Positions 1-37,223 of a DNA stretch of 64,000 bases are shown piece by piece (the stretch's first letter is position 1; each line of letters opens with the position of its first letter). The notes under the pieces were generated by a model. It was not told the DNA's origin. It saw only the letters and a list, made by a program, of their open reading frames with translations, and did no database searches. A program made the position numbers and the translations under genes. This DNA comes from an uncultured Gammaproteobacteria bacterium (lineage in GTDB: Bacteria > Pseudomonadota > Gammaproteobacteria > JACCXJ01), in NCBI GenBank assembly GCA_963764725.1, contig CAVXTM010000001.1, positions 160,001-224,000 of the forward strand, in the 5' to 3' direction.

Positions 1-158
1 GATCTGATCGGCCCCTCCCTGCGCGCCGGTCGTTCCGAGCGATGTCTAAGGACGCGACACATACAGACAACGGCATCGCTTTCCGCAACACCCCCTGGCC
101 TCCGAAATCTCGATGTTTCTCTGAGCTAGCCTAGGGAATAAAGCGGTACCGATAACCA

Positions 159-1583
159 TTACCTTCGCAAGGCGGAGAAAAAACGATGAACTTTACGGCG
201 GAGCTTTTGCACCCCTCTTTTTCCGCGTCTCTGGAACTGATCGTTAAGCTTGATCCACAAGTTCGGCTCGGCGATCTGTTCGTGGTACTGCGCCAGATAA
301 TCCGGAGCATGCGTCGATATTAACGACGTCAGAATCGCAAGTTTTTCGGGTTGTGCCTTCATCCTTCTCCGGGTCGCGGCTACGGTTCGTGAATAAAGTT
401 CTGCTTTAACGTTACTCCGATCCCGAGATCTGTAAAGATACGGCAGCACCTCCGCCAAAATGATGGCCGGATCATGCCGGTAAGGGTCGTAATTGGTACG
501 CACCTTATCGGTTACCTCCAGAAACTTTCTTGCGCAGTTTTCTATGTAACTTTCGCTTCCTTCGGGCCACGATTCGGAAACCTGATTTATCGACGATACT
601 CTAGCCGCATGCCACACATTTCTCATGAGTTCGGCTAACTGGATGTCATCCTCAGGGGCGAAATAAAGCGCACCCGGCGGCGCTTGTTCTCTGTGAACCA
701 GGATATCCGATAATAAAAGACATTGCCCCAGCGCACGCGCTTCCTCGACCACCGTACTCCAACCCTCGAAGAGGCTTGGCTGAATAATGCATGTCGCTAC
801 CTGCATCAGCCGAAGCTGGTCCTCCCTCGGAATGCTTCCCAGCAAACGTACTGACCCTTCGAGGGAGTGCTCCGAAATGAACCCCCGAAGCTCCTGGAAA
901 TGTTTCGGCCAGCGGTGATCGTTAGTATATCCGGTGAAGACGCAGACTATTGGCAGTTCCTTGAGTCTCATTAAGGCACGTAGAATAACAATATGGTTCT
1001 TGTGCTTCCAAAATTGGTTGCAAACAAGATAAAACCTGATTGGCAGGCCATAACGCATACAGAGTTCGGAGGCGTCGGCATCCGTAATATGAGACGCTTC
1101 GATCACGGCGGCGAAAGGAAGGGTTGCAATCGGCACGAGGTCCTGGCCAACGATACGGACCGTGTCGTAATATGCCATCTGGCTGCTGACAACCAGAAAG
1201 GGCGCGCGAGTGGCCAATAACCGGTAATTAAGGTCACGGCGTTCACGCTCAAGCTCATCAAACATCTGGGGCAAGTGTTTATATTGCCAATCCGGGATCC
1301 AGCCAGCCCATGGAGCATCGAAAGGTGCCTCAAAAAGCTGCGTTATGGGGTACACGATATCCAGATTTAATAGGTGGGCACGATCGAATCTTTCGACACC
1401 CGCCACTACACTGGAATAGCCCCGAGCTATAGATTCGCCATCTGGATCGGAATACAGTAAATAAATCGCTGGTCTATCGGGCGGATCAAGGGTATTCAGC
1501 GTCTTAGTCCAATTCAGCACGTAATGCACGCCACCTATCCATGCGGAACTGGATCGCACTCTAAAACCTATGCGTAACGGCAT
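159..1583 (-). CDS. Glycosyltransferase, GT4/GT-B (group 1)
   Basis: 474 aa ORF with NQFWKHKNH and PSLFEGWSTVVEEA (EX7E) motifs. Confidence 0.9.
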   Translation of the reverse strand: MPLRIGFRVRSSSAWIGGVHYVLNWTKTLNTLDPPDRPAIYLLYSDPDGESIARGYSSVVAGVERFDRAHLLNLDIVYPITQLFEAPFDAPWAGWIPDWQYKHLPQMFDELERERRDLNYRLLATRAPFLVVSSQMAYYDTVRIVGQDLVPIATLPFAAVIEASHITDADASELCMRYGLPIRFYLVCNQFWKHKNHIVILRALMRLKELPIVCVFTGYTNDHRWPKHFQELRGFISEHSLEGSVRLLGSIPREDQLRLMQVATCIIQPSLFEGWSTVVEEARALGQCLLLSDILVHREQAPPGALYFAPEDDIQLAELMRNVWHAARVSSINQVSESWPEGSESYIENCARKFLEVTDKVRTNYDPYRHDPAIILAEVLPYLYRSRDRSNVKAELYSRTVAATRRRMKAQPEKLAILTSLISTHAPDYLAQYHEQIAEPNLWIKLNDQFQRRGKRGVQKLRRKVHRFFSALRR

Positions 1584-2713: not shown

Positions 2714-4441
2714 TTAATTCAATCCGTCGTGTATTCCGTACGTTTCTGCCGGGTATATGTAAGGGGTTCCTCCCAAGATTCCATTACAAATGACATCCAA
2801 GCCCGGATAATTTCCCGGCAGCAGATTGTCCAGCTTCTCGATGGCTATTTGAAAGGCCGTTGGCCCTCCGTTCGGAACGAGAAACGGCAGCGGGATCATG
2901 CGCCGGAAAAAGAAATGGTATGCATATTTGCGTGCCCGCCGCGTGATCTCGATACTGTTTCTGCGCCCCAGCGGCAGCCGGTCCAAGATCTCGAAGTATT
3001 GCTCCGGGGATGATGCATCGAGGGTGATCCCTTTGTTCCGTATCCAAGCCTCCCCGGCCACAATCACGGGTATGCCGATGCTGGTTAGCTCAACGCCGGT
3101 CTTGGTGCCGTAAATGATGACGGAATCACAGTGCATCATCGCCGCGTAGGTACTCACCGGACTCTCCGGCGGGATGATGAACACGTTCCTAGGCAACTGA
3201 GGGAAAAACTTTTCGATTTCTTCCGTCAGCGGCTGCCGCGACTTCGCCGTTCCCCGGATCTCCGCAGGGTGGATCCTGATGAGCAACTGCACATCCGGGC
3301 GTCCCTTGAAGTAGCCAATAGTTTGTAACACCCAATCCAACATGTTCGAAAACGCGTTGGCCCGGTAATGTAACTGCGCATCCCACATCACGTTGGTCAG
3401 CATCGCGATGCACGGTTCGCGGGGATCTATACCGGAGACACGAATGAAGCGGTCAAAATCCTCATCGGGTTTTTCGTGAAACCAAATCCAGTCGCGCGTG
3501 CCGCGCCAGCGGCTTTTTAGATAATCCAGAATCTGCGCGTCTTGTTGATCTCCCCACGCCATACCCTCCCATTCGGTTGCAGGCTCCGACAGCAAGGTGT
3601 GATGGTAGGTGTCGCCATGACTGAAGATGAGTGTATTACGGCGGTATGCCACCACCCAATTGCTCAGCCTCACCCCGCATTTTCGGCACGCTTCACCGAC
3701 GATCCCTTGCGGGACATATAGCCCGTGGTGAAAGCACGCCGCAGTGAAATGGACCTCCTTTAGGAGCCGCTGCATGGCATATGCGGTCAAAAGCGACGCC
3801 TCGAAATACCTTCGGAGCACCACTTCACCCAACGATTCCGCGGACAAGTCGCCGCGCGCGTAGTAGCGGAGTGCGCCGGCATGCGCGTGCTCACCGACCG
3901 CCAACCCGTCCTGACGGAAATGCGGAATCTGGGTCGCCGGTGTTTCTGCGGCGAGATGCTTCGCTTGATCGAGATCCTGCGGTGTGACTAACTCGCTCAG
4001 GCGAATGACTTTCGTGCCGATGGGCAAAAACACCGCCTCTCCCCTCTGCACGCAGCCCGGACACAGAACTTTCGGCAGTTCGTATCGCTCAATTGCGCCG
4101 GGATCGGGCAGGCTCGAGATTTCCGCCTTGAGGCAGCCGGGGAGCATCCCATCGCAAAGCAGCGTGTGGACCTGCGCGCCGCGGAGCGTCAGCGCTACGC
4201 CTAGCATGCTCTCGACGACGCTTACCGGGCCGTGTCCGCCGACGTTGGTGGCGATCAGCACCTTGGGGCCATTCGCGGCGGTCCGGGCCGCTTGTTCCCA
4301 CAGCGGCCGATTGGTGCCAAGCAGAACCTCCCAGTCCGGTAAACCTTCCATCGTGACGAAAGGATGCTTCATGCCCGCTATGGCGTTGGTCACTCGCCGA
4401 CCGAGCGCTCCTTCAATTACTTTCCGTAGTCTGATTACCAT
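2714..4441 (-). CDS. Capsule biosynthesis protein (KpsS/Capsule_synth-like; candidate ulosonate transferase)
   Basis: 575 aa; IRIHPAE (HP motif) and GTKTGVE...GIPVIVAG typical of KpsC/KpsS-like proteins; in an operon with neuB and wzm/wzt. Confidence 0.7.
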   Translation of the reverse strand: MVIRLRKVIEGALGRRVTNAIAGMKHPFVTMEGLPDWEVLLGTNRPLWEQAARTAANGPKVLIATNVGGHGPVSVVESMLGVALTLRGAQVHTLLCDGMLPGCLKAEISSLPDPGAIERYELPKVLCPGCVQRGEAVFLPIGTKVIRLSELVTPQDLDQAKHLAAETPATQIPHFRQDGLAVGEHAHAGALRYYARGDLSAESLGEVVLRRYFEASLLTAYAMQRLLKEVHFTAACFHHGLYVPQGIVGEACRKCGVRLSNWVVAYRRNTLIFSHGDTYHHTLLSEPATEWEGMAWGDQQDAQILDYLKSRWRGTRDWIWFHEKPDEDFDRFIRVSGIDPREPCIAMLTNVMWDAQLHYRANAFSNMLDWVLQTIGYFKGRPDVQLLIRIHPAEIRGTAKSRQPLTEEIEKFFPQLPRNVFIIPPESPVSTYAAMMHCDSVIIYGTKTGVELTSIGIPVIVAGEAWIRNKGITLDASSPEQYFEILDRLPLGRRNSIEITRRARKYAYHFFFRRMIPLPFLVPNGGPTAFQIAIEKLDNLLPGNYPGLDVICNGILGGTPYIYPAETYGIHDGLN

Positions 4442-29579: not shown

Positions 29580-30270
29580 GAGAAGATGCAGACGATGAAA
29601 CTCTCCGCAATGGCCGAAGCCTCGCCTAGGACTCCTCATCGATACCGAATGGACCGCGCGGGAAAACCGTAAACTCGCTCGACGCCTGCGCGCGGCCAAG
29701 ATGCGCCATGCCGCTTCCATTGAAAACATCGACTTTAAACCCCCCCGCGGCCTAAACCGCCAAGAGATCCTCGCCTTAGGAAGCTGTGCCTGGATCCAAG
29801 GGCATCATAACTTGCTCATCATCGGACCGACCGGCATCGGGAAGTCCTATCTCTGCTGCGCGTTTGTCGAGCGCGCCTGCCGGCAAGGCTACACGGCTTA
29901 CTATGCCCGAGCACCCCGCTTGCTCCATGAGCTTGCCATCGGACGAGGCGATGGCTCCTATACGCGGCTCCTCAACCGTCTCGCCCGTTTCGATCTCTTG
30001 GCCATCGATGATTGGCTCCTCGGACCACTGAAAGACACCGAGCGCCGCGATCTCATGGAAGTAATCGAGGACCGATCCGAATGTGCCTCCACCTTGATCG
30101 CAACCCAGCTCCCCATCAAAGACTGGCATGCCGTCATCGGGGATCCGAATCAGGCCGATGCGATCTGCGACCGGCTGCTTCACAATGCCCACCGCATCGA
30201 ATTGAAAGGCGCTTCCATGCGTAGGACCAAGAGCGCTCCCAAACCCACAGAGGATGGGCAAAATGCGTGA
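29580..30270 (+). pseudogene. istB: IS21 helper ATPase IstB (start codon stranded at 26223; internal deletion near 29622)
   Basis: GPTGIGKS Walker A, LAIDDW, ADAICDRL; N-terminal EKMQTMKLSAMAEA and RLGLLIDTEWTARENRKL in different frames. Confidence 0.9.
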
Positions 30271-31606: not shown

Positions 31607-32509
31607 TTATGGCTTCTGCAGGACGCAAACGGCCTGTGCACCAGAAAATTTAGAGATGATTTCCCTTAGGCGAAAGTATCGGCTCCATTGACGGGCGACA
31701 TATGCATTTGAATGAAACACGTTGCACCTATATGGATCATCTCCCCGAAATGTCGAAACATGCCGACCATCCGGCATATCCTCTATTCCTATCAAATCGT
31801 CTCGGAATTTGAAGAATGTTTCGTTAAGAAATGGAGGCATGTTCTTCCAAGTAACTTCATTATGTATAGTTATTAGTGCAATTGACCCCCGTTTCAAAAT
31901 CCTCCTCAGTTCGAGTAACCAGGCGGTCTCTGTCTCGTCAATATGTGTGAAAACCGACATCGCTATGATCAGATCAACCGAATTGTCTTCGATCGGCAGC
32001 AAAGGAAAATAGGACCCTTGGAATGCCACGAGTCTAGTAGTGTGGAAGTTCTCTAGGTTCCATTCGACGGACGTCCTTTTAAAATCGGCCGTCCAAACGT
32101 CCCATTCCTGTGATTGATACAAGAAGTGCCGGAAAACACGTCCGGTAGACCCCCCAAAGTCGAAGAGTTGACCAGTTGTCACTCCATAACGTTGCGCCAA
32201 TTCCTTAATACGGAAATATTCACCTAGTCCGGAGAGCCAATATGCGAAATGTTGGTCGCCGGCATACCCTTCGCGGTTTAGTTTAGCGGGAATAGGAGCT
32301 GGGTCGCGTGCTAGTGCGGCACCAACGGTTTCGGGATTTAGGCAGTCACCGTAGGAATCGTATAGGTAGGGATATTTTGAGGCCATTTCTGCTGTGAACT
32401 GTGACGGATGTGCTGGCGACGGCTCCAGCTCATTCGCCTGCGCATAAGGATTGCAGTAAGCTAAAAGGCTGCTCACCTTTTCCGCTATTATTCTTTCGCT
32501 TTGTGACAT
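31607..32509 (-). CDS. Class I SAM-dependent methyltransferase
   Basis: LFDFGGSTGR motif I, SVFTHID, LLELRRILKRG. Confidence 0.88.
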   Translation of the reverse strand: MSQSERIIAEKVSSLLAYCNPYAQANELEPSPAHPSQFTAEMASKYPYLYDSYGDCLNPETVGAALARDPAPIPAKLNREGYAGDQHFAYWLSGLGEYFRIKELAQRYGVTTGQLFDFGGSTGRVFRHFLYQSQEWDVWTADFKRTSVEWNLENFHTTRLVAFQGSYFPLLPIEDNSVDLIIAMSVFTHIDETETAWLLELRRILKRGSIALITIHNEVTWKNMPPFLNETFFKFRDDLIGIEDMPDGRHVSTFRGDDPYRCNVFHSNAYVARQWSRYFRLREIISKFSGAQAVCVLQKP

Positions 32510-32790
32510 CGAAATCTCCGACAGTCCCGGATGAGAGAAATTGCAGCGCCGCAGCCGCGACTTAAGTGGAACACACCACGGCGCTCAAGAAACCCCAGTA
32601 CCGGTGGCGGAAACAACGCAGCTAATAAGACAACACCGAAAACGCCCCGCACCGTCACCGCTGGCCATCATTGTTGCGAAACGATTTCGCAGTGCCGTGT
32701 TCCTGACCCAAGGATCGCGGCATTCGCCGGACTGGTACGACGGCGATTGCTGGGATCCCGGCAAGCTCGACAAGTTCTCCTCCTCCCTAA

Positions 32791-34470
32791 CCCGGCATAG
32801 CCGGAACCAAGGTGTTGAATGTACTATTCTGGCGGATGGGCAATAAGAACTGAGATGGGTCGTCGCCATGAACTCCTTTGTTGAACGCCATCAAGCGAAG
32901 ATCGCCGCGGTGCTTTGTTGCTTTGACCGCATCGTGATCACTGGCACGCTTCCGGAGATCGCCCATGCCGAGGCTATGGCCCGGTATTTGGGTGTCCGGG
33001 GTATGCGTCTGTTTGACTACCCCCGCTGGGCAGAACCGCTGCGCGAGGCGCTTCGGACCCATGCCGAGCGGCTGGCCGCTGAGGCTTCGTTGGAAATTGA
33101 ATTCATCCGTCATTACAAGGCGTTTCGTAAAGAAGAACGGATCAAAGCGATTTTGGCTTTGCGCGGTGAGCACCCGGGGCTGGTGCATATCTTCTCGGCG
33201 ATGGAGGCCTGTCCTTCGTATCGCCCCTGGCATGACAAGCTTCAGCATACGACCCGTTTGAAGTCTACCCCGGGCAAGTGTTTGCATTATTACTTCTATT
33301 TCATCGATGAGATCTTCGGGCTCTGTTATGTCCGAGTACCCACCTGGGCACCGTTTCGCCTGCAGGTCTATTTGAACGGCCATCACTGGTTAGCCCAACG
33401 ACTGACCAAGACAGGGATCGCCTTTGAGCGCGCCGATAATGCCTTCTTGTCCATCGGCGATCCCCAACAGGCTCAGGCGCTTGCCGATAGCCTCGATCCC
33501 AAAGGCTTGCATCGGCGTTTGGACCGATGGGCGAAAAGCTTCTGTCCTATCTTGGGTCAGTTTCGCGCTGGTTATCACTGGAGCTTCATGCAGGTGGAGT
33601 TGCATCCTCGGCGCGCCAAGCAGGGCCACTCCCTGGCCCTGGCTTTCTCGACCGATGTCATCTTCCACCGCCAAGCCGATTTCCAACCCCTCTATCAAGC
33701 CATCGTGCGTACCGCCGTGCATGCCCTCAAGGCAGAACACGTCGCCACCTTCTTGGGACGCAAACTCACCTCGGCCTTCAGCGGGGAGGCCGGTAACGAT
33801 TTTCACACCCGCATTCAGGGTACACGCATCCGCCATCATATGGGACCAGCAAGCCTCAAGCTCTACGATAAATTCAGTCTCATGGCTCGGGTGGAATGCA
33901 CCGCCAACGATGTCTCCTTCTTCAAACACCACCGTTGGGTGGAACAACGCAATGGGCGCAAGCAATTCAAACTCGCACCCCTGCGAAAAAACATCTATAG
34001 CCTCCCCGATCTGCGAGAGCTGATGCATGCTGCCAATGAACGCTATCTCAGCTTCATGGCCAGCATCGATAACCCCAATGCAGCTCTGCACGCCATCGAC
34101 AAAATGGCCAAACCTGTACGAGAGAAAGACCGCTCCTATCGGGGCTTCAATCTCTTCCTCGGTGAAGATCATAGCCTTTTTATTACCCTCGCCCGCGGGG
34201 AGTGGAACATCAGCGGCTTTCGCGCCTCCGATCTCCGAGCCCATCTCCGGGATCTCTCCACCGGCCGTGCCTCCTACTGGTTGAAACGCTTGCGCACCCA
34301 TGGCCTCATCAAAAAGATTGGACATCGCTACAAGTACTACCTCACGACATTCGGTCGTCGTGTGCTCAGCAGCGCACTCGCTATCCGAGAGTATGTAGTC
34401 ATGCCTGCTCTCAATACCGCTCATGCATGACACTCTTTGCTTTTTTGCACAAGATTTCATGGATAAGGGA
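32791..34470 (+). mobile_element. Unclassified IS-like element without terminal inverted repeats, flanked by CTAA
   Basis: CTAA at 32787-32790 and 34471-34474; single ORF; interrupts a recognisable coding tail. Confidence 0.8.
32868..34430 (+). CDS. Putative transposase of unknown family (KLYDK...RVE core, C-terminal winged helix)
   Basis: 520 aa ORF fills the element; no evident DDE family motifs; C-terminal RLRTHGLIKKIGHRYKYYLT wHTH. Confidence 0.7.
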   Translation: MNSFVERHQAKIAAVLCCFDRIVITGTLPEIAHAEAMARYLGVRGMRLFDYPRWAEPLREALRTHAERLAAEASLEIEFIRHYKAFRKEERIKAILALRGEHPGLVHIFSAMEACPSYRPWHDKLQHTTRLKSTPGKCLHYYFYFIDEIFGLCYVRVPTWAPFRLQVYLNGHHWLAQRLTKTGIAFERADNAFLSIGDPQQAQALADSLDPKGLHRRLDRWAKSFCPILGQFRAGYHWSFMQVELHPRRAKQGHSLALAFSTDVIFHRQADFQPLYQAIVRTAVHALKAEHVATFLGRKLTSAFSGEAGNDFHTRIQGTRIRHHMGPASLKLYDKFSLMARVECTANDVSFFKHHRWVEQRNGRKQFKLAPLRKNIYSLPDLRELMHAANERYLSFMASIDNPNAALHAIDKMAKPVREKDRSYRGFNLFLGEDHSLFITLARGEWNISGFRASDLRAHLRDLSTGRASYWLKRLRTHGLIKKIGHRYKYYLTTFGRRVLSSALAIREYVVMPALNTAHA

Positions 34471-34699
34471 CTAAGCAGCTCGTTCGATTCCGCCATCACC
34501 TCCGCGGCGAGCCCATCCGGTTCCTCCTCGGGAAGCGGCGGTGGGGGTTCCTCACGGGGAGGCGGGGGGCGGAGGCGGGTGGTAGACAAGTTACAGGGCT
34601 CAAGTCTCCTACCTTGCATAACGTGAAATAGGGGAGACGTGATTCCGTATTTGCGTACAACCTTATTCCTACCGTTCCAGCCCGTGTTCGCGTCCACCA

Positions 34700-35147: not shown

Positions 35148-36162
35148 GTCGGGTAGACCTGGGTAGTCGCCCACCCAGGTCCCCCTCAGATCCGGACATG
35201 CGCGACTAACGCATCCGGCTCCTCAGACAATGGTTTCGCTGCGCGCTTCAGATATGAATGAACGATGCGGGCAGGTGGCAAAGGATGACGAGCCAGAAGA
35301 CGACTCGCATGATCCCAATTGAAACGCCCTCGCTGAGAGCGGCGCCGTAGCCATTTAAGCCACAGTCGTTCCACATGGTAGCAGAGGCGTTGCAGCAACC
35401 GGATATTGCCGGTGATGCCGTAGTAGGCGTAATGACCGCGTAGCTTCCGCTCCAGGTGGGCGCGCTGCTCGCACACCGGCAGGTGGCGGAACCGGCGACA
35501 CCAGAGCTTGATTCGGAGCAGGGCTCGACGGAGACGGTCCTTGGCCGTCTTCTGCTGAATGACCCAGTAGCCCCGGCGTGAGCGACCCCAATAATGGGTA
35601 AAGCCCAAGAAAGTGAACGTTCCCAGCACCGAAACGGTCCCTCTGCGATGCGCTGGCGCGAAATGCACCAGCCGAGTCTTTGTGGGATGCAGCGTCAACC
35701 CATATTTGGCAAACCGCTTGGGTAAGACAGCCAGCACCCGTCGCGCATCGGCCTCCTCGGCAAAGCACAAGAGCGCATCGTCAGCGAATCTGACAGTGAA
35801 CGCACGGCCTCGCAGCCGCGGCCTCACCTCTGCCGCAAACCAACGGTCCAGTACCTCGTGGAGGTAGATGTTCGCCAAAATCGGTGAAACCACAGCCTGC
35901 CTCCGGAAACGTCACCTTCTCTCGCTCCATAACACCGGCGTTAAGCCACTTGTCAATCAAACGACACAGCACACCATCACGCACCCGTTGCTTGATGAAC
36001 GCACGAAGCTGCGAATGATCGAGCGTATCGAAAAATGACCAATCATCCAGCCACCTCCCATCGCCATCGTCGACTGCCACAAGACATCGAGCGCTTGATG
36101 TGCCGAACGGCGGGGCCGAAACCAAAGGAGCAGTCCAAAAAGTCCTGCTCGAAAAGGGGTTC
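35148..36162 (-). mobile_element. Second group II intron, 3' half only
   Basis: Domain V GAGCCGGATGCG..GTCCGGATCT and domain VI ending CCCGAC at 35148; RT fragments [29 protein letters not shown] plus X domain. Confidence 0.9.
35186..36162 (-). pseudogene. Group II intron RT/maturase, 5'-truncated with internal deletions
   Basis: ORF pieces 35186-35893 and 35781-36125; PQG motif deleted. Confidence 0.85.
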
Positions 36163-37223
36163 TAGTGACCTGTAACAGGCACTTTAGTAGTGATGCGGCG
36201 TGAGGGATCAAAGTATTTCCACTTCACGGTTTTAGGTTTCTTGTTGTAGTGACGGATATAGCGCATGAGTTTTCTTTTAAGATCATTGACCGAAGTGAAG
36301 ATGCCGCGGGCGATGACATCGCGCTCGATCTTGGCGAACCACAGCTCCACTTGGTTTAGCCAAGAGGAGTAAGTGGGGATGAAATGAAGACGCACGTTCG
36401 GATGCTGGTCAAGGAACTCTTCTACCCGCTTGGTCTTGTGAGCCGAGAGGTTATCCGCGATGACATGGATCTCCTTGTTCTTGGGTTGGCTCGCCACGAT
36501 GTCGGTCAAAAACGCGACAAACTCCGCGGAGGTATGGCGATCGGCGGTCTTACCCAGAATCCCTCCGGTTTTGGTGTTGAAGGCGGCGTACAGACTCAAG
36601 GTGCCGTGCCGGTAATACTCAAAGCCGTGCCGCTCGGCGCGTCCCGGGGAGAGCGGCAGCAGCGGGTCTTTACGGTCCAAGGCTTGGATGGCGGTCTTCT
36701 CGTCCACGCAGAAGACCGCGGCGTGTTGCGGGGGGTTCAGATACAACCCAATGATGTCAGCCGCCTTAGCCTCGAAGTCCGGGTCGTTGGAAGCCATATA
36801 GCGCTCCACCCGATGGGGTTTCAACCCATGCTTAGCCCATACCCGCGCTACCATCATATGAGAAAGCCCAAGCTCGCGCGCAAGCTTGCGGGTGCTCCAA
36901 TGCGTGGAGCCATCGGGCGGTTTCTTCTTGGTGGTCCAGGCCAAGATCTTCGCTTCGCCTCGCACATCGAGTTTGTTCGCCGGCTGTCCCCTGTGCCGAC
37001 TGTACAAACCGGCAAGCCGCTCGTCACTAAAACGTTTGCTCCAGCTATTGATAAACCCATCATTGCATGCGAGCTTGCTTCGAATCTCAGCCCATGTGTG
37101 GCCTTGCTCAAGCAACAAAATCAACCGTGCGCGGCGCGCATCCTCCGCACGGCCCGTCCGACTTATGGCTCGCTTGGTCAATTCCACACGTTCGGTTTCC
37201 ATCAATTTTATCGCGGTTTTCAT
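36162..37223 (-). CDS. IS630 transposase, apparently intact
   Basis: THWSTRKLA, CVDEKTAIQ, YYRHGT, ADNLSAHK, PTYSSWLNQVE; stop TAG formed at the target site. Confidence 0.93.
   Translation of the reverse strand: MKTAIKLMETERVELTKRAISRTGRAEDARRARLILLLEQGHTWAEIRSKLACNDGFINSWSKRFSDERLAGLYSRHRGQPANKLDVRGEAKILAWTTKKKPPDGSTHWSTRKLARELGLSHMMVARVWAKHGLKPHRVERYMASNDPDFEAKAADIIGLYLNPPQHAAVFCVDEKTAIQALDRKDPLLPLSPGRAERHGFEYYRHGTLSLYAAFNTKTGGILGKTADRHTSAEFVAFLTDIVASQPKNKEIHVIADNLSAHKTKRVEEFLDQHPNVRLHFIPTYSSWLNQVELWFAKIERDVIARGIFTSVNDLKRKLMRYIRHYNKKPKTVKWKYFDPSRRITTKVPVTGH

Follow-up and report, generated by a model that had tools for sequence, protein, structure and literature searches.

The 64,000-nucleotide (nt) stretch analyzed here, the window, comes from an uncultured Gammaproteobacteria bacterium (contig CAVXTM010000001.1) and contains a compact mobile element lodged in a host gene. 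The tetranucleotide CTAA, at 32787-32790 on the left and 34471-34474 on the right, brackets a 1680-bp body (32791-34470) whose sole long open reading frame (ORF), at 32868..34430 (+), encodes a 520-residue protein that we regard as the putative transposase. The noncoding DNA around the ORF is short, with 77 nt at the left end and 40 nt at the right end. The left junction, C-CTAA (32786..32790 (+)), is followed by a box of the form C-[CCGGC-ATA-GCCGG]-AACCAAGG (32791..32812 (+)) that holds a hairpin at 32792-32804. Toward the right end lie an inverted repeat, TCTTTG-N-CAAGA (34434..34454 (+)), and a terminal box, TAAGGGA-CTAA (34464..34474 (+)). Among the 25 longest of 71 inverted-repeat pairs inspected, none joins the two termini, and the nearest pair (32866-32880 with 34448-34462) is subterminal. 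The original prediction, made from the letters of the window, had described the flanking CTAA, the single ORF, the small left-end hairpin, and ends that are not inverted repeats, and each of these features was recovered at the coordinates above.

An orthologous empty site establishes the segment as an insertion. In G008 (locus L098), which among 30 other genomes searched was the only same-genus match to the left flank of the element, the flanks lie side by side and the uninterrupted gene reads TCCTCC-CTAG-GCAGCTCG. The G008 gene product is 570 residues long, contains the N and C domains of DUF2207 (PF09972 and PF20990), and terminates in GGGGGGGW before the stop codon. A second empty site was retrieved from one contig of metagenome run X5, where position 32788 is joined to 34475 with 'CG' between them, giving CTCG (shorter side 28 nt, depth 12.6). 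Because both empty sites hold four bases where the window has CTAA-element-CTAA, the proposal that deleting the element with one CTAA rejoins the host frame is correct, and the single tetranucleotide implies that insertion adds 1680 + 4 bases. The host gene had also been called DUF2207-like from its tail; the G008 ortholog bears this out with both domains, although the flanking ORF pieces in the window have no Pfam match of their own. What remains of the gene in the window is only ~94 nt upstream and ~110 nt downstream of the element, and its tail (~34555-34580) appears frame-shifted in a G-run relative to the G008 ortholog, which ends GGGGGGGGGGGW before the stop; an X5 contig has indels of 1-2 bases at 34569 and 34573. 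When the flanks of 10 copies were searched within the same genome, none had both flanks adjacent elsewhere, and the left flank of copy L004 had no match in the 30 other genomes.

Dispersal within the genome is equally clear. A DNA search of the assembly (4.2 Mb, 19 contigs) found eight near-full-length copies and several fragments, and the flanks of the eight are unrelated to one another. Five copies are 99-100% identical to the window copy, while three are ~92-96% identical and are without 45 bp of it. In an alignment of the eight, similarity begins just after (C)CTAA in seven (L007 has TGAA) and ends at ACTAA in seven (the end of L008 has decayed). The ORF is intact in L001, L002, L004, and L005 (520 residues) and in L007 (505 residues) and broken in L003, L006, and L008; other insertions interrupt two of the own-genome copies. 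Metagenome runs X1 and X2 provide loose ends at 32786 and 34474 that continue into new flanks. The element is likewise multi-copy in several other genomes, with seven matches in G005, for example, and on one 3.08-Mb contig the copies alternate in orientation. Homologs are therefore multi-copy with common CTAA borders rather than single-copy and syntenic, which agrees with the mobility that had been predicted.

The databases offer little guidance on the encoded protein. Neither Pfam nor NCBIfam contains a family for the ORF, and both returned only weak winged-helix rows at its C-terminus: a single NCBIfam row, a match to the Sso10a winged helix (E 0.084), and Pfam rows for HTH_45 (E 0.19) and HVO_A0261_N (E 0.032), with no MarR or ArsR row. 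The family is very large all the same. A word-indexed protein search placed 7819 proteins at E<=1e-3 among 8000 candidates scored, and the best 120 relatives share 68-91% identity, are nearly all 505 residues long, and have no precomputed Pfam domain. An exhaustive search of 50%-identity representatives retrieved 7444 at E<=1e-3, 3469 at E<=1e-10, and 683 at E<=1e-30. In contigs drawn from one genome per species, at least 504 stretches, of at least 587 matched by pattern, encode a relative, and the lineages among the 80 loci kept include Gammaproteobacteria, Nitrospirota, Planctomycetota, Acidobacteriota, Armatimonadota, Gemmatimonadota, Desulfobacterota, Chloroflexota, and others. Annotated plasmids contribute 15 matching records, each an insertion in a large plasmid (199 kb to 1.95 Mb). 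Those of the best 120 relatives that have a name at source are called either 'hypothetical protein' or 'MarR family transcriptional regulator'; the ESM Atlas clusters go by 'hypothetical protein' only. A relative on pOLGA1 of Paraburkholderia phytofirmans (49% identity) is labeled 'ArsR family transcriptional regulator', and those on plasmids of Burkholderia, Caballeronia, Rhodococcus, and Mycobacterium (~25% identity) are 'hypothetical protein' where annotated. A search of open-access PubMed Central and bioRxiv, with ISfinder, subscription journals, and supplements outside its scope, found no description of this family or of any transposase of the Rep_trans type or with the fold of the TATA-binding protein (TBP).

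Taken at face value, the source names 'MarR family' and 'ArsR family transcriptional regulator' describe a nonmobile chromosomal regulator gene, and the C-terminal domain is indeed a genuine winged helix. That domain is only the last ~115 of 505 residues, whereas MarR/ArsR regulators are small (~150 residues), and a resident regulator gene would have to account for many identical copies with sharp common boundaries, unrelated flanks, and an orthologous empty site. We consider this explanation scarcely credible.

Recognition as a transposase of an established type also failed. No transposase model in Pfam or NCBIfam matches the ORF, which includes DEDD_Tnp_IS110 and Transposase_20, and no HUH, Y1, or Y2 transposase domain gave a Pfam or NCBIfam row at E<=1. 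The expectation that no DDE, serine, HUH, or IS110 motif would be recognizable was thus upheld at the level of family models. As a positive control, the same Pfam library identified the IS110 transposase in C11 (E 1.1e-23 and 7.2e-18), and it also recognized IS630-type and IstB proteins nearby.

The ends of the element are conserved across the family. As single-stranded DNA, the left hairpin CCGGC-ATA-GCCGG folds at -6.4 kcal/mol (z -2.06). Sixty distinct left ends from many phyla yield the consensus CCTAA-C-CCGGC-nTA-GCCGG-AACCAAACAGG, in which 15 of 40 columns are invariant. Within the 5-bp hairpin, 96.3% of cells are paired and three pairs never vary; in one pair, a compensatory change from C-G to T-A occurs in two sequences and T-G in two others. 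At the right end, the family form is of the TCTTG-N9-11-CAAGA type and lies ~20 nt before a conserved TAAG-G-K-A-CTA terminus. For this helix, which was given by hand for 36 right ends, 63.9% of cells pair as against 58.1% in shuffles, with none of 500 shuffles reaching the observed value. Cells with a double change number 31 compared with 17.3 +/- 3.5 in shuffles (again 0/500) and 8-16 in slid controls. RNAalifold returned no consensus structure for the same 36 ends, and the local fold of the right end in the window has z -0.62. Comparison of these sequences lends moderate support to a right-end helix.

The junctions themselves vary in a regular manner. A scripted search recovered 85 loci with the left-end pattern, from many phyla, 84 of them unique. 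The left tetranucleotide (n=84) is CTAA in 72 cases and CCAA in 9, with single instances of TGAA, CTAG (at a contig start), and CCAT (spurious, L063), and C precedes the tetranucleotide in 75 of 79. Pattern matching found a right end for 69 insertions and none for 15, owing to a contig end or a pattern failure, and a few right-end calls with odd element sizes may be wrong. The right tetranucleotide (n=69) is CTAA in 54, CTAC in 7, CTAT in 4, and CTAG in 4, so that CTA is invariant. The two sides are identical (CTAA/CTAA) in 47 of the 69 pairs and unlike in 22. Excluding L007 and the spurious L063, the left member of an unlike pair differs only at base 2 (T to C) and the right member only at base 4 (A to C, T, or G). 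In one genome, L018 and L019 are 99% identical copies of a composite made up of this element and an adjacent paralog (described below), and they have CTAA and CCAA, respectively, at the left.

The original prediction had left CTAA as either a target duplication or a recombination core. Because variation on the left is confined to base 2 and on the right to base 4, CTAA behaves as a strand-exchange site, and the first of these options is abandoned in favor of the second. A duplication made by repair would start out identical and decay at random, so the observed pattern points to a single exchange inside the tetranucleotide. On this model, the junctions would be hybrid, with C(T/C) from the target and AA from the element at the left (C-CT and AA in the window), and CT from the element and A(N) from the target at the right (CT and AA in the window). 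Cuts at CT^AA and at CTA^A both fit the junctions; by analogy with related enzymes, the published nick position favors CT^AA. If CT^AA is nicked at both ends, the mobile strand segment would be 32789..34472 (+), or 1684 nt, a proposal that draws on the copy boundaries, the empty sites, and the junction asymmetry, with the exact cut taken from the published CT'AA nick site. Locus L052 abuts a solo right end, as would follow if the right-end site could serve as a target in its turn.

The same data bear on an ordinary DDE-type insertion sequence (IS) that duplicates a preferred 4-bp target. IS5- or IS701-like elements target YTAR, and the 4-base repeat found around most copies, with 47 of 69 pairs identical, is what such an element would leave. 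Set against this are junction differences that are position-specific rather than randomly decayed, the lack of terminal inverted repeats, and the silence of transposase models in a library that found IS110, IS630-type, and IstB proteins nearby. An RNase H-like fold was likewise missing from the fold searches described below, where a Tn5 row had a probability of 0.08 and a TM of 0.10. A DDE-type element is accordingly very improbable.

Structure prediction places the protein in a different fold class. The full-length AlphaFold2 model has a pLDDT of 92.0 and a pTM of 0.83 and comprises two predicted parts: an N-terminal, two-lobed, TBP-like (Rep_trans-like) putative catalytic domain (32868..34073 (+), residues ~1-402) and a C-terminal winged-helix DNA-binding domain (34074..34427 (+), residues ~403-520). 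The winged helix, which the original prediction had named, aligns to HxlR, MarR, and PadR structures with VIA-align Z of 8-9.6; it was also the only part to match in a profile search of the Protein Data Bank (PDB), weakly and to MarR-type chains. Foldseek found nothing at E<=0.001 for the full-length model against the PDB. In a VIA-align fold search of 48,161 PDB representatives, residues 6-401 of the full-length model aligned to TBP 1mp9_B (Z 8.7, 180 residues).

A separate model of the N-terminal domain was built from the insert-free own copy L007 and 37 homologous fragments translated from the loci (pLDDT 86.7, or about 87, weak at residues 283-309). In the wide search, its matches were TBP 1mp9_B (Z 7.3, 173 residues), TBP 7o4i_O (Z 6.7, 172 residues), a phosphoglucomutase domain over one lobe only (Z 6.7, 118 residues), TBP 5fur_A (Z 6.5, 167 residues), RepDE 4cwc_A (Z 6.3, 179 residues, root-mean-square deviation [rmsd] 5.0), and RepSTK1 4cij_A (Z 6.0, 185 residues). 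A second fold search of 998 Foldseek-ranked chains gave TBPs at Z 6.0-7.3 (159-175 residues), 4cwc_A at Z 6.3 (179 residues), 4cwe_A (RepDE) at Z 6.1 (178 residues), and 4cij_C at Z 6.0 (176 residues). At Z>=6, the matches that span both lobes are TBPs and the three solved Rep_trans entries; all others cover one lobe, apart from two weak ones (rmsd >8, one of them 8.8). The structure search that had been suggested as a check thus returned TBPs and Rep_trans initiators over both lobes and no RNase H/DDE match; a row for the HUH relaxase TraI had a probability of 0.41 and a TM of 0.11. In the BFVD database, A0A345MNV4 ranks sixth with a probability of 0.91 and an E of 1.3e-2, above the 0.001 cut-off, and the remaining rows are also weak. 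A0A345MNV4 is an Inoviridae Rep_trans protein (PMC13107129). On its own, the predicted likeness to the TBP/Rep_trans fold is suggestive, not decisive.

Rep_trans endonucleases are described as adopting the TBP fold, and in RepDE, residues D46, D142, and E214 are metal ligands and Y191 is the nucleophile (PMC13107129). R189 and K193 are reported as critical for religation, in a sheet with TBP connectivity (PMC4797284). The listed Rep_trans motifs are N' with D, RxD, T/SxY/ExG, YxKxxE, and W/LxRxE, and the tyrosine sits on a β-strand, unlike in HUH enzymes (PMC5714925). We compared the element protein with the pT181-family initiators RepC, RepD, and RepDE and with RepSTK1. Four motifs, FD, xxD-hydrophobic-F, I[RK]xY[ND]K, and [WL]R[VI]E, occur in identical order in RepC and the element family: LSFD46AMTIVG corresponds to LSCFD20RVVITG, TRLD142LAFDF to (E244)YATD263VIF, FIR189IY191NK193 to SIK331MY333DK335, and LWR212VE214IE to VLR341IE343TT. 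Predicted secondary structure puts the first motif on the opening strand of lobe 1, the second on the opening strand of lobe 2, and the remaining two on successive strands of lobe 2. The structural alignment to 4cwc (13..398 to 39..279) puts D20 on RepDE D46, assuming a gap-free first strand, and hhalign pairs the same two residues. The layout of a tyrosine on a strand flanked by basic residues and followed by an RxE strand is present as a motif layout only.

Conservation within the family singles out the same positions. Across 62 full-length sequences, down to 28% identity, D20, R21, G104, E113, Y142, Y144, G151, P162, N170, L175, N191, E244, K331, Y333, R341, and E343 never vary; D263 and K335 are shared by at least 90% of the sequences. 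The KLYDK...RVE block noticed in the original prediction is the family's most conserved, since K331, Y333, R341, and E343 are all invariant. In the window, the proposed active-site strands map to 33858..33896 (+) and contain K331-L-Y333-D-K335 and R341-V-E343 (predicted strands 328-335 and 339-346). From their conservation and their predicted positions on the first strand of each lobe and on the strand that follows the tyrosine, we propose D20, D263 (with E244), and E343 as candidate metal ligands.

The likeness to Rep_trans enzymes appears to extend to the DNA. For Rep_trans and MOBT enzymes, the published nick site is CT'AA, with a GC-rich hairpin alongside (PMC9371924), and in pT181 the sequence CCGGCTACTCTAATAGCCGG occurs once, at 4359-4378. 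Like the element, Rep_trans initiators combine a two-lobed, crescent, TBP-like sheet and a separate C-terminal DNA-binding domain, which in their case recognizes an inverted repeat near the nick, with a CT'AA site beside a CCGGC/GCCGG-type hairpin. The differences are substantial. The catalytic domain is ~390 residues with large helical inserts in the element protein and ~220 residues in Rep_trans, the spacing from tyrosine to glutamate is 10 residues rather than 23, and two nick sites bracket a 1.68-kb multi-copy chromosomal element where a Rep_trans plasmid has one origin. Judged from models and alignments, the resemblance is one of fold, motifs, and DNA site.

Other known systems share parts of this arrangement. 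The MOBT relaxases of ICESt3, Tn916, and ICEBs1 (RelSt3, Orf20, and NicK) are Rep_trans-related and nick CT'AA, like the proposed site of the element, yet they act at one oriT for conjugation rather than at two IS ends. They are reported to have strand-transfer activity and an added helix-turn-helix (HTH) domain needed for efficient nicking (PMC9371924). This HTH is N-terminal, whereas the winged helix of the element protein is C-terminal, and MOBT enzymes are reported as widespread in Firmicutes, in contrast to an element family found in Proteobacteria, Acidobacteriota, Nitrospirota, Planctomycetota, and others. Rep-Arvir (DUF7845) of archaeal viruses and plasmids is described as a TBP-like domain with a MarR-like winged helix and an essential tyrosine (PMC13107129). 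It resembles the element protein, compared here by description only, in domain plan and in having a relation to Rep_trans that is visible only by structure; it differs in belonging to archaeal replicon initiators and in its tyrosine motif, KHYYM instead of KxYxK, and PF25227 (Rep-Arvir) gave no row for the element protein at E<=1.

Among insertion sequences, the IS200/IS605 and IS91/ISCR groups lack terminal inverted repeats and true duplications and have a fixed junction tetranucleotide, subterminal hairpins, and an initiator-like tyrosine enzyme. This anatomy is common to the element and to both groups (HUH Y1 and HUH Y2, respectively), but their enzymes have an HUH/RNA-recognition-motif fold with the tyrosine on a helix, as opposed to the TBP-like fold with the tyrosine on a strand predicted here. 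IS110-family (DEDD) elements have ends without inverted repeats and a short core at both junctions. The element shares the noninverted ends and the short core but is without the DEDD domains, and its left noncoding end is only 77 nt.

Given that Rep_trans enzymes are replication initiators, the element might instead be mainly a tiny rolling-circle replicon, a mini-plasmid or satellite whose Rep integrates at CT'AA, with the chromosomal copies as integrated replicons. Most homolog clusters sit on contigs of only 1.6-2.5 kb, and locus L043, a 3.5-kb metagenome contig, runs within positions 1-100 from the last 77 nt of a right end through a single CTAA into a left end, as in a circle. This head-to-tail junction could also represent tandem copies, and the collapse of repeats yields short contigs the length of the element. 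Several integrated copies with unrelated flanks occur on long-read chromosomes and large contigs, the plasmid matches are insertions in replicons of 199 kb to 1.95 Mb, and no single-strand origin or second gene is present within the 1.68 kb. The element found no match in 50,697 phage records and one partial match among the 2.9 million viral contigs of IMG/VR. An independent replicon is quite unlikely on this evidence.

We instead consider it likely that the element is an autonomous IS in which one protein of 505 residues (520 here) combines a tyrosine transesterase domain, Rep_trans-like and of TBP fold, with a winged helix at its C-terminus, and that it represents an undescribed, very large IS family mislabeled as regulators or hypothetical proteins. 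In the mechanism that we envisage, the winged helix and/or the saddle would bind at both ends, to the hairpin box on the left and the inverted repeat on the right. Y333, in a β-strand between K331 and K335, would act with a metal ion held by D20, D263 (with E244), and E343 and would nick both ends at CT^AA on the coding strand, forming a 5'-phosphotyrosine link. Rejoining would seal the donor as flank-CT + AA-flank, and a single strand from AA...CCCGG to ...GGGACT would be released or copied out, probably as a circle, and joined into another C-CT^A-A site. The chemistry, the exact cut (CT^AA or CTA^A), and a single-stranded form are deductions from these comparisons, and the donor copy might either stay in place (rolling-circle copy-out) or be lost (peel-and-paste); by analogy, the adduct would have the polarity given above. 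In a less likely arrangement, the pseudo-symmetric N-lobe, in which Y142 and Y144 are invariant, might contribute another nucleophile and thereby allow a single protomer to handle both ends. The earlier suggestion of a tyrosine-nucleophile transposase derived from a Rep_trans/CRI-type initiator is thus supported by the predicted fold, the motifs, the nick site, and the junctions, with catalysis a deduction from the model.

Several observations weigh against this interpretation. Membership in Rep_trans at the sequence level did not hold up: PF02486 (cut-off 29.6 bits) gave no row at E<=1 for the ORF, the best hit of a six-frame genome search with the same model (11.9 bits, E 0.318) lies at another locus, and hhalign against a RepC-type profile returned a probability of 0.13% (E 0.45) with a shallow RepC alignment of 10 sequences (81-93% identity to the first). 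Fold scores of Z 6-7 are within the range common for chance arrangements. CTAA lies one base 5' of the hairpin foot, whereas CT'AA occupies the hairpin loop in known Rep_trans origins, and a conserved CT'AA nick site in the loop of a GC-rich hairpin is also described for ICEBs1-type MOBT relaxases (PMC9371924). When the natural right-end-to-left-end junction of L043 was folded, CTAA was not in a hairpin loop (z -0.54 and -1.25). No right-end-to-left-end circle joint was found in the four runs examined, as contigs only, which drop rare forms. The empty sites read CTAG and CTCG and the window CTAA at both junctions, and the target in the window lineage must therefore have been CTAA before insertion, which is plausible, though unproven, at the 5-12% divergence of the flanks. 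Orientation shows no bias relative to GC skew (positive in 8 of 12 own copies and 22 of 47 other loci) and therefore lends no support to IS608-style targeting of the lagging-strand template. Finally, five near-identical copies have a 15-residue insert in a conserved strand and may be inactive and moved in trans.

Some of these points would suit a new double-strand site-specific recombinase that acts on a 4-bp core and is unrelated to Rep_trans, with the TBP-like fold serving only as a DNA-binding saddle. TBPs score equal to or above the Rep_trans structures at middling Z, the lack of strand bias fits double-strand chemistry, and a core common to donor and target would also yield identical junctions. 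TBPs are, however, without the invariant KxYxK...RxE, FD, and xTD motifs, which correspond one after another to the active-site motifs of Rep_trans; the core is identical to the nick sequence published for Rep_trans and MOBT enzymes, and the mismatched junction pairs lack a reciprocal pattern. We judge such a recombinase unlikely.

Beyond the assignment of this one element, we lean, with somewhat less assurance than for the IS itself, toward viewing it as the first Rep_trans/TBP-fold transposase class. It would be a further mechanistic class of IS beside DDE, DEDD, HUH, serine, and tyrosine-recombinase elements, operating by one-strand nick-and-join at CT^AA and spread unnoticed through many phyla under 'MarR/ArsR regulator' labels. 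If so, transposition has also drawn on the second superfamily of rolling-circle initiators, the non-HUH one, in parallel to IS91, Helitrons, and IS200/IS605, and the protein would be a compact enzyme that nicks and joins DNA sequence-specifically, as a single protein, at a short defined site. Confirmation would also mean that current annotation has missed a large cross-phylum mobile-element family to which PGAP-type pipelines assign the names of regulators or hypothetical proteins. Its insertions disrupt genes (here, DUF2207) and break assemblies, yet they go uncounted in mobile-element censuses.

The window copy departs from the family norm in one respect. Its ORF is 520 residues long, as originally reported, owing to a secondary in-frame insertion of 45 bp (15 residues) at 33600..33644 (+); the family form is 505 residues. 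The insertion, a hairpin mini-repeat, splits the conserved QxE-YATD strand and is placed between invariant E244 and the YATD strand. The model falls below pLDDT 50 at residues 243-254, at the 15-residue insert. Copies L006-L008 are without it, and metagenome contigs, which represent abundant variants, skip it with a joint from 33599 to 33645. The near-identical copies that bear the insert are either still active or moved in trans by a protein of the L007 type.

The 45-nt mini-repeat has an internal hairpin, AAGCAGGGCCA...TGGCCCTGGCTT, and is found at about two dozen other sites in G000 (for example, C18:697033-697079, C15:171900-171948, and C1:466599-466644), in addition to lying in frame in the transposase gene of five copies. 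It is very abundant in metagenome run X5, with a word depth of ~85,000 at 33566-33634. The copy in C11 (G000:C11:178521-179674, locus L093) is split by a 1154-bp insertion that encodes a 317-residue IS110-family transposase (PF01548, E 1e-23; PF02371, E 7e-18). As this insertion lies inside the mini-repeat, the latter may be a target of the IS110 element. A 1379-bp insertion breaks up another copy (G000:C18:264427-267495); it is accompanied by duplication of 8 bp of the element (positions 1005-1012) and is presumably an insertion sequence of another kind.

At seven loci (L010, L018, L019, L023, L029, L034, and L039), a second, distantly related element begins directly after the right-end CTA of the first and has the form CTAC-GCTTTTTCC...GGAAAAAG. 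The adjacent paralog, for example at L018:4561-6045, has an ORF of ~545 residues (open frames of ~550-600 residues), ~25% identity, and no Pfam match; it keeps the FD, KxYDK, and RxE residues and begins with hairpins of its own. The two together form a 3.1-kb unit that recurs in one genome. Also adjoining element ends are short tandem arrays whose 7-8-nt units end in CCTA(A) (L064:4550-4625; L065-L067:2880-2920; L069:2340-2362 and 4003-4035). Examples are nine units of GTACCTAA following the right end of L064, TACCTAA units ahead of the left end in L065-67, and TTCCCTA units flanking both sides in L069. These arrays could be products of repeated nick-and-join between neighboring sites or preferred targets.

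A promoter scan of 32700-34560 gave no sigma-70-like site, and the three terminator-like sites in the same interval all lie within the ORF and are no more than expected by chance. RNA run X15 yielded four contigs with 95-99% identity over parts of the ORF, a match that does not show transcription. Around the element, the window encodes an IstB (IS21 helper) fragment (29701-30270), a class I methyltransferase (31607-32509), a group II intron reverse-transcriptase fragment (35186-35893), and an IS630-type DDE_3 transposase (36162-37223), making this neighborhood a mobile-element graveyard.

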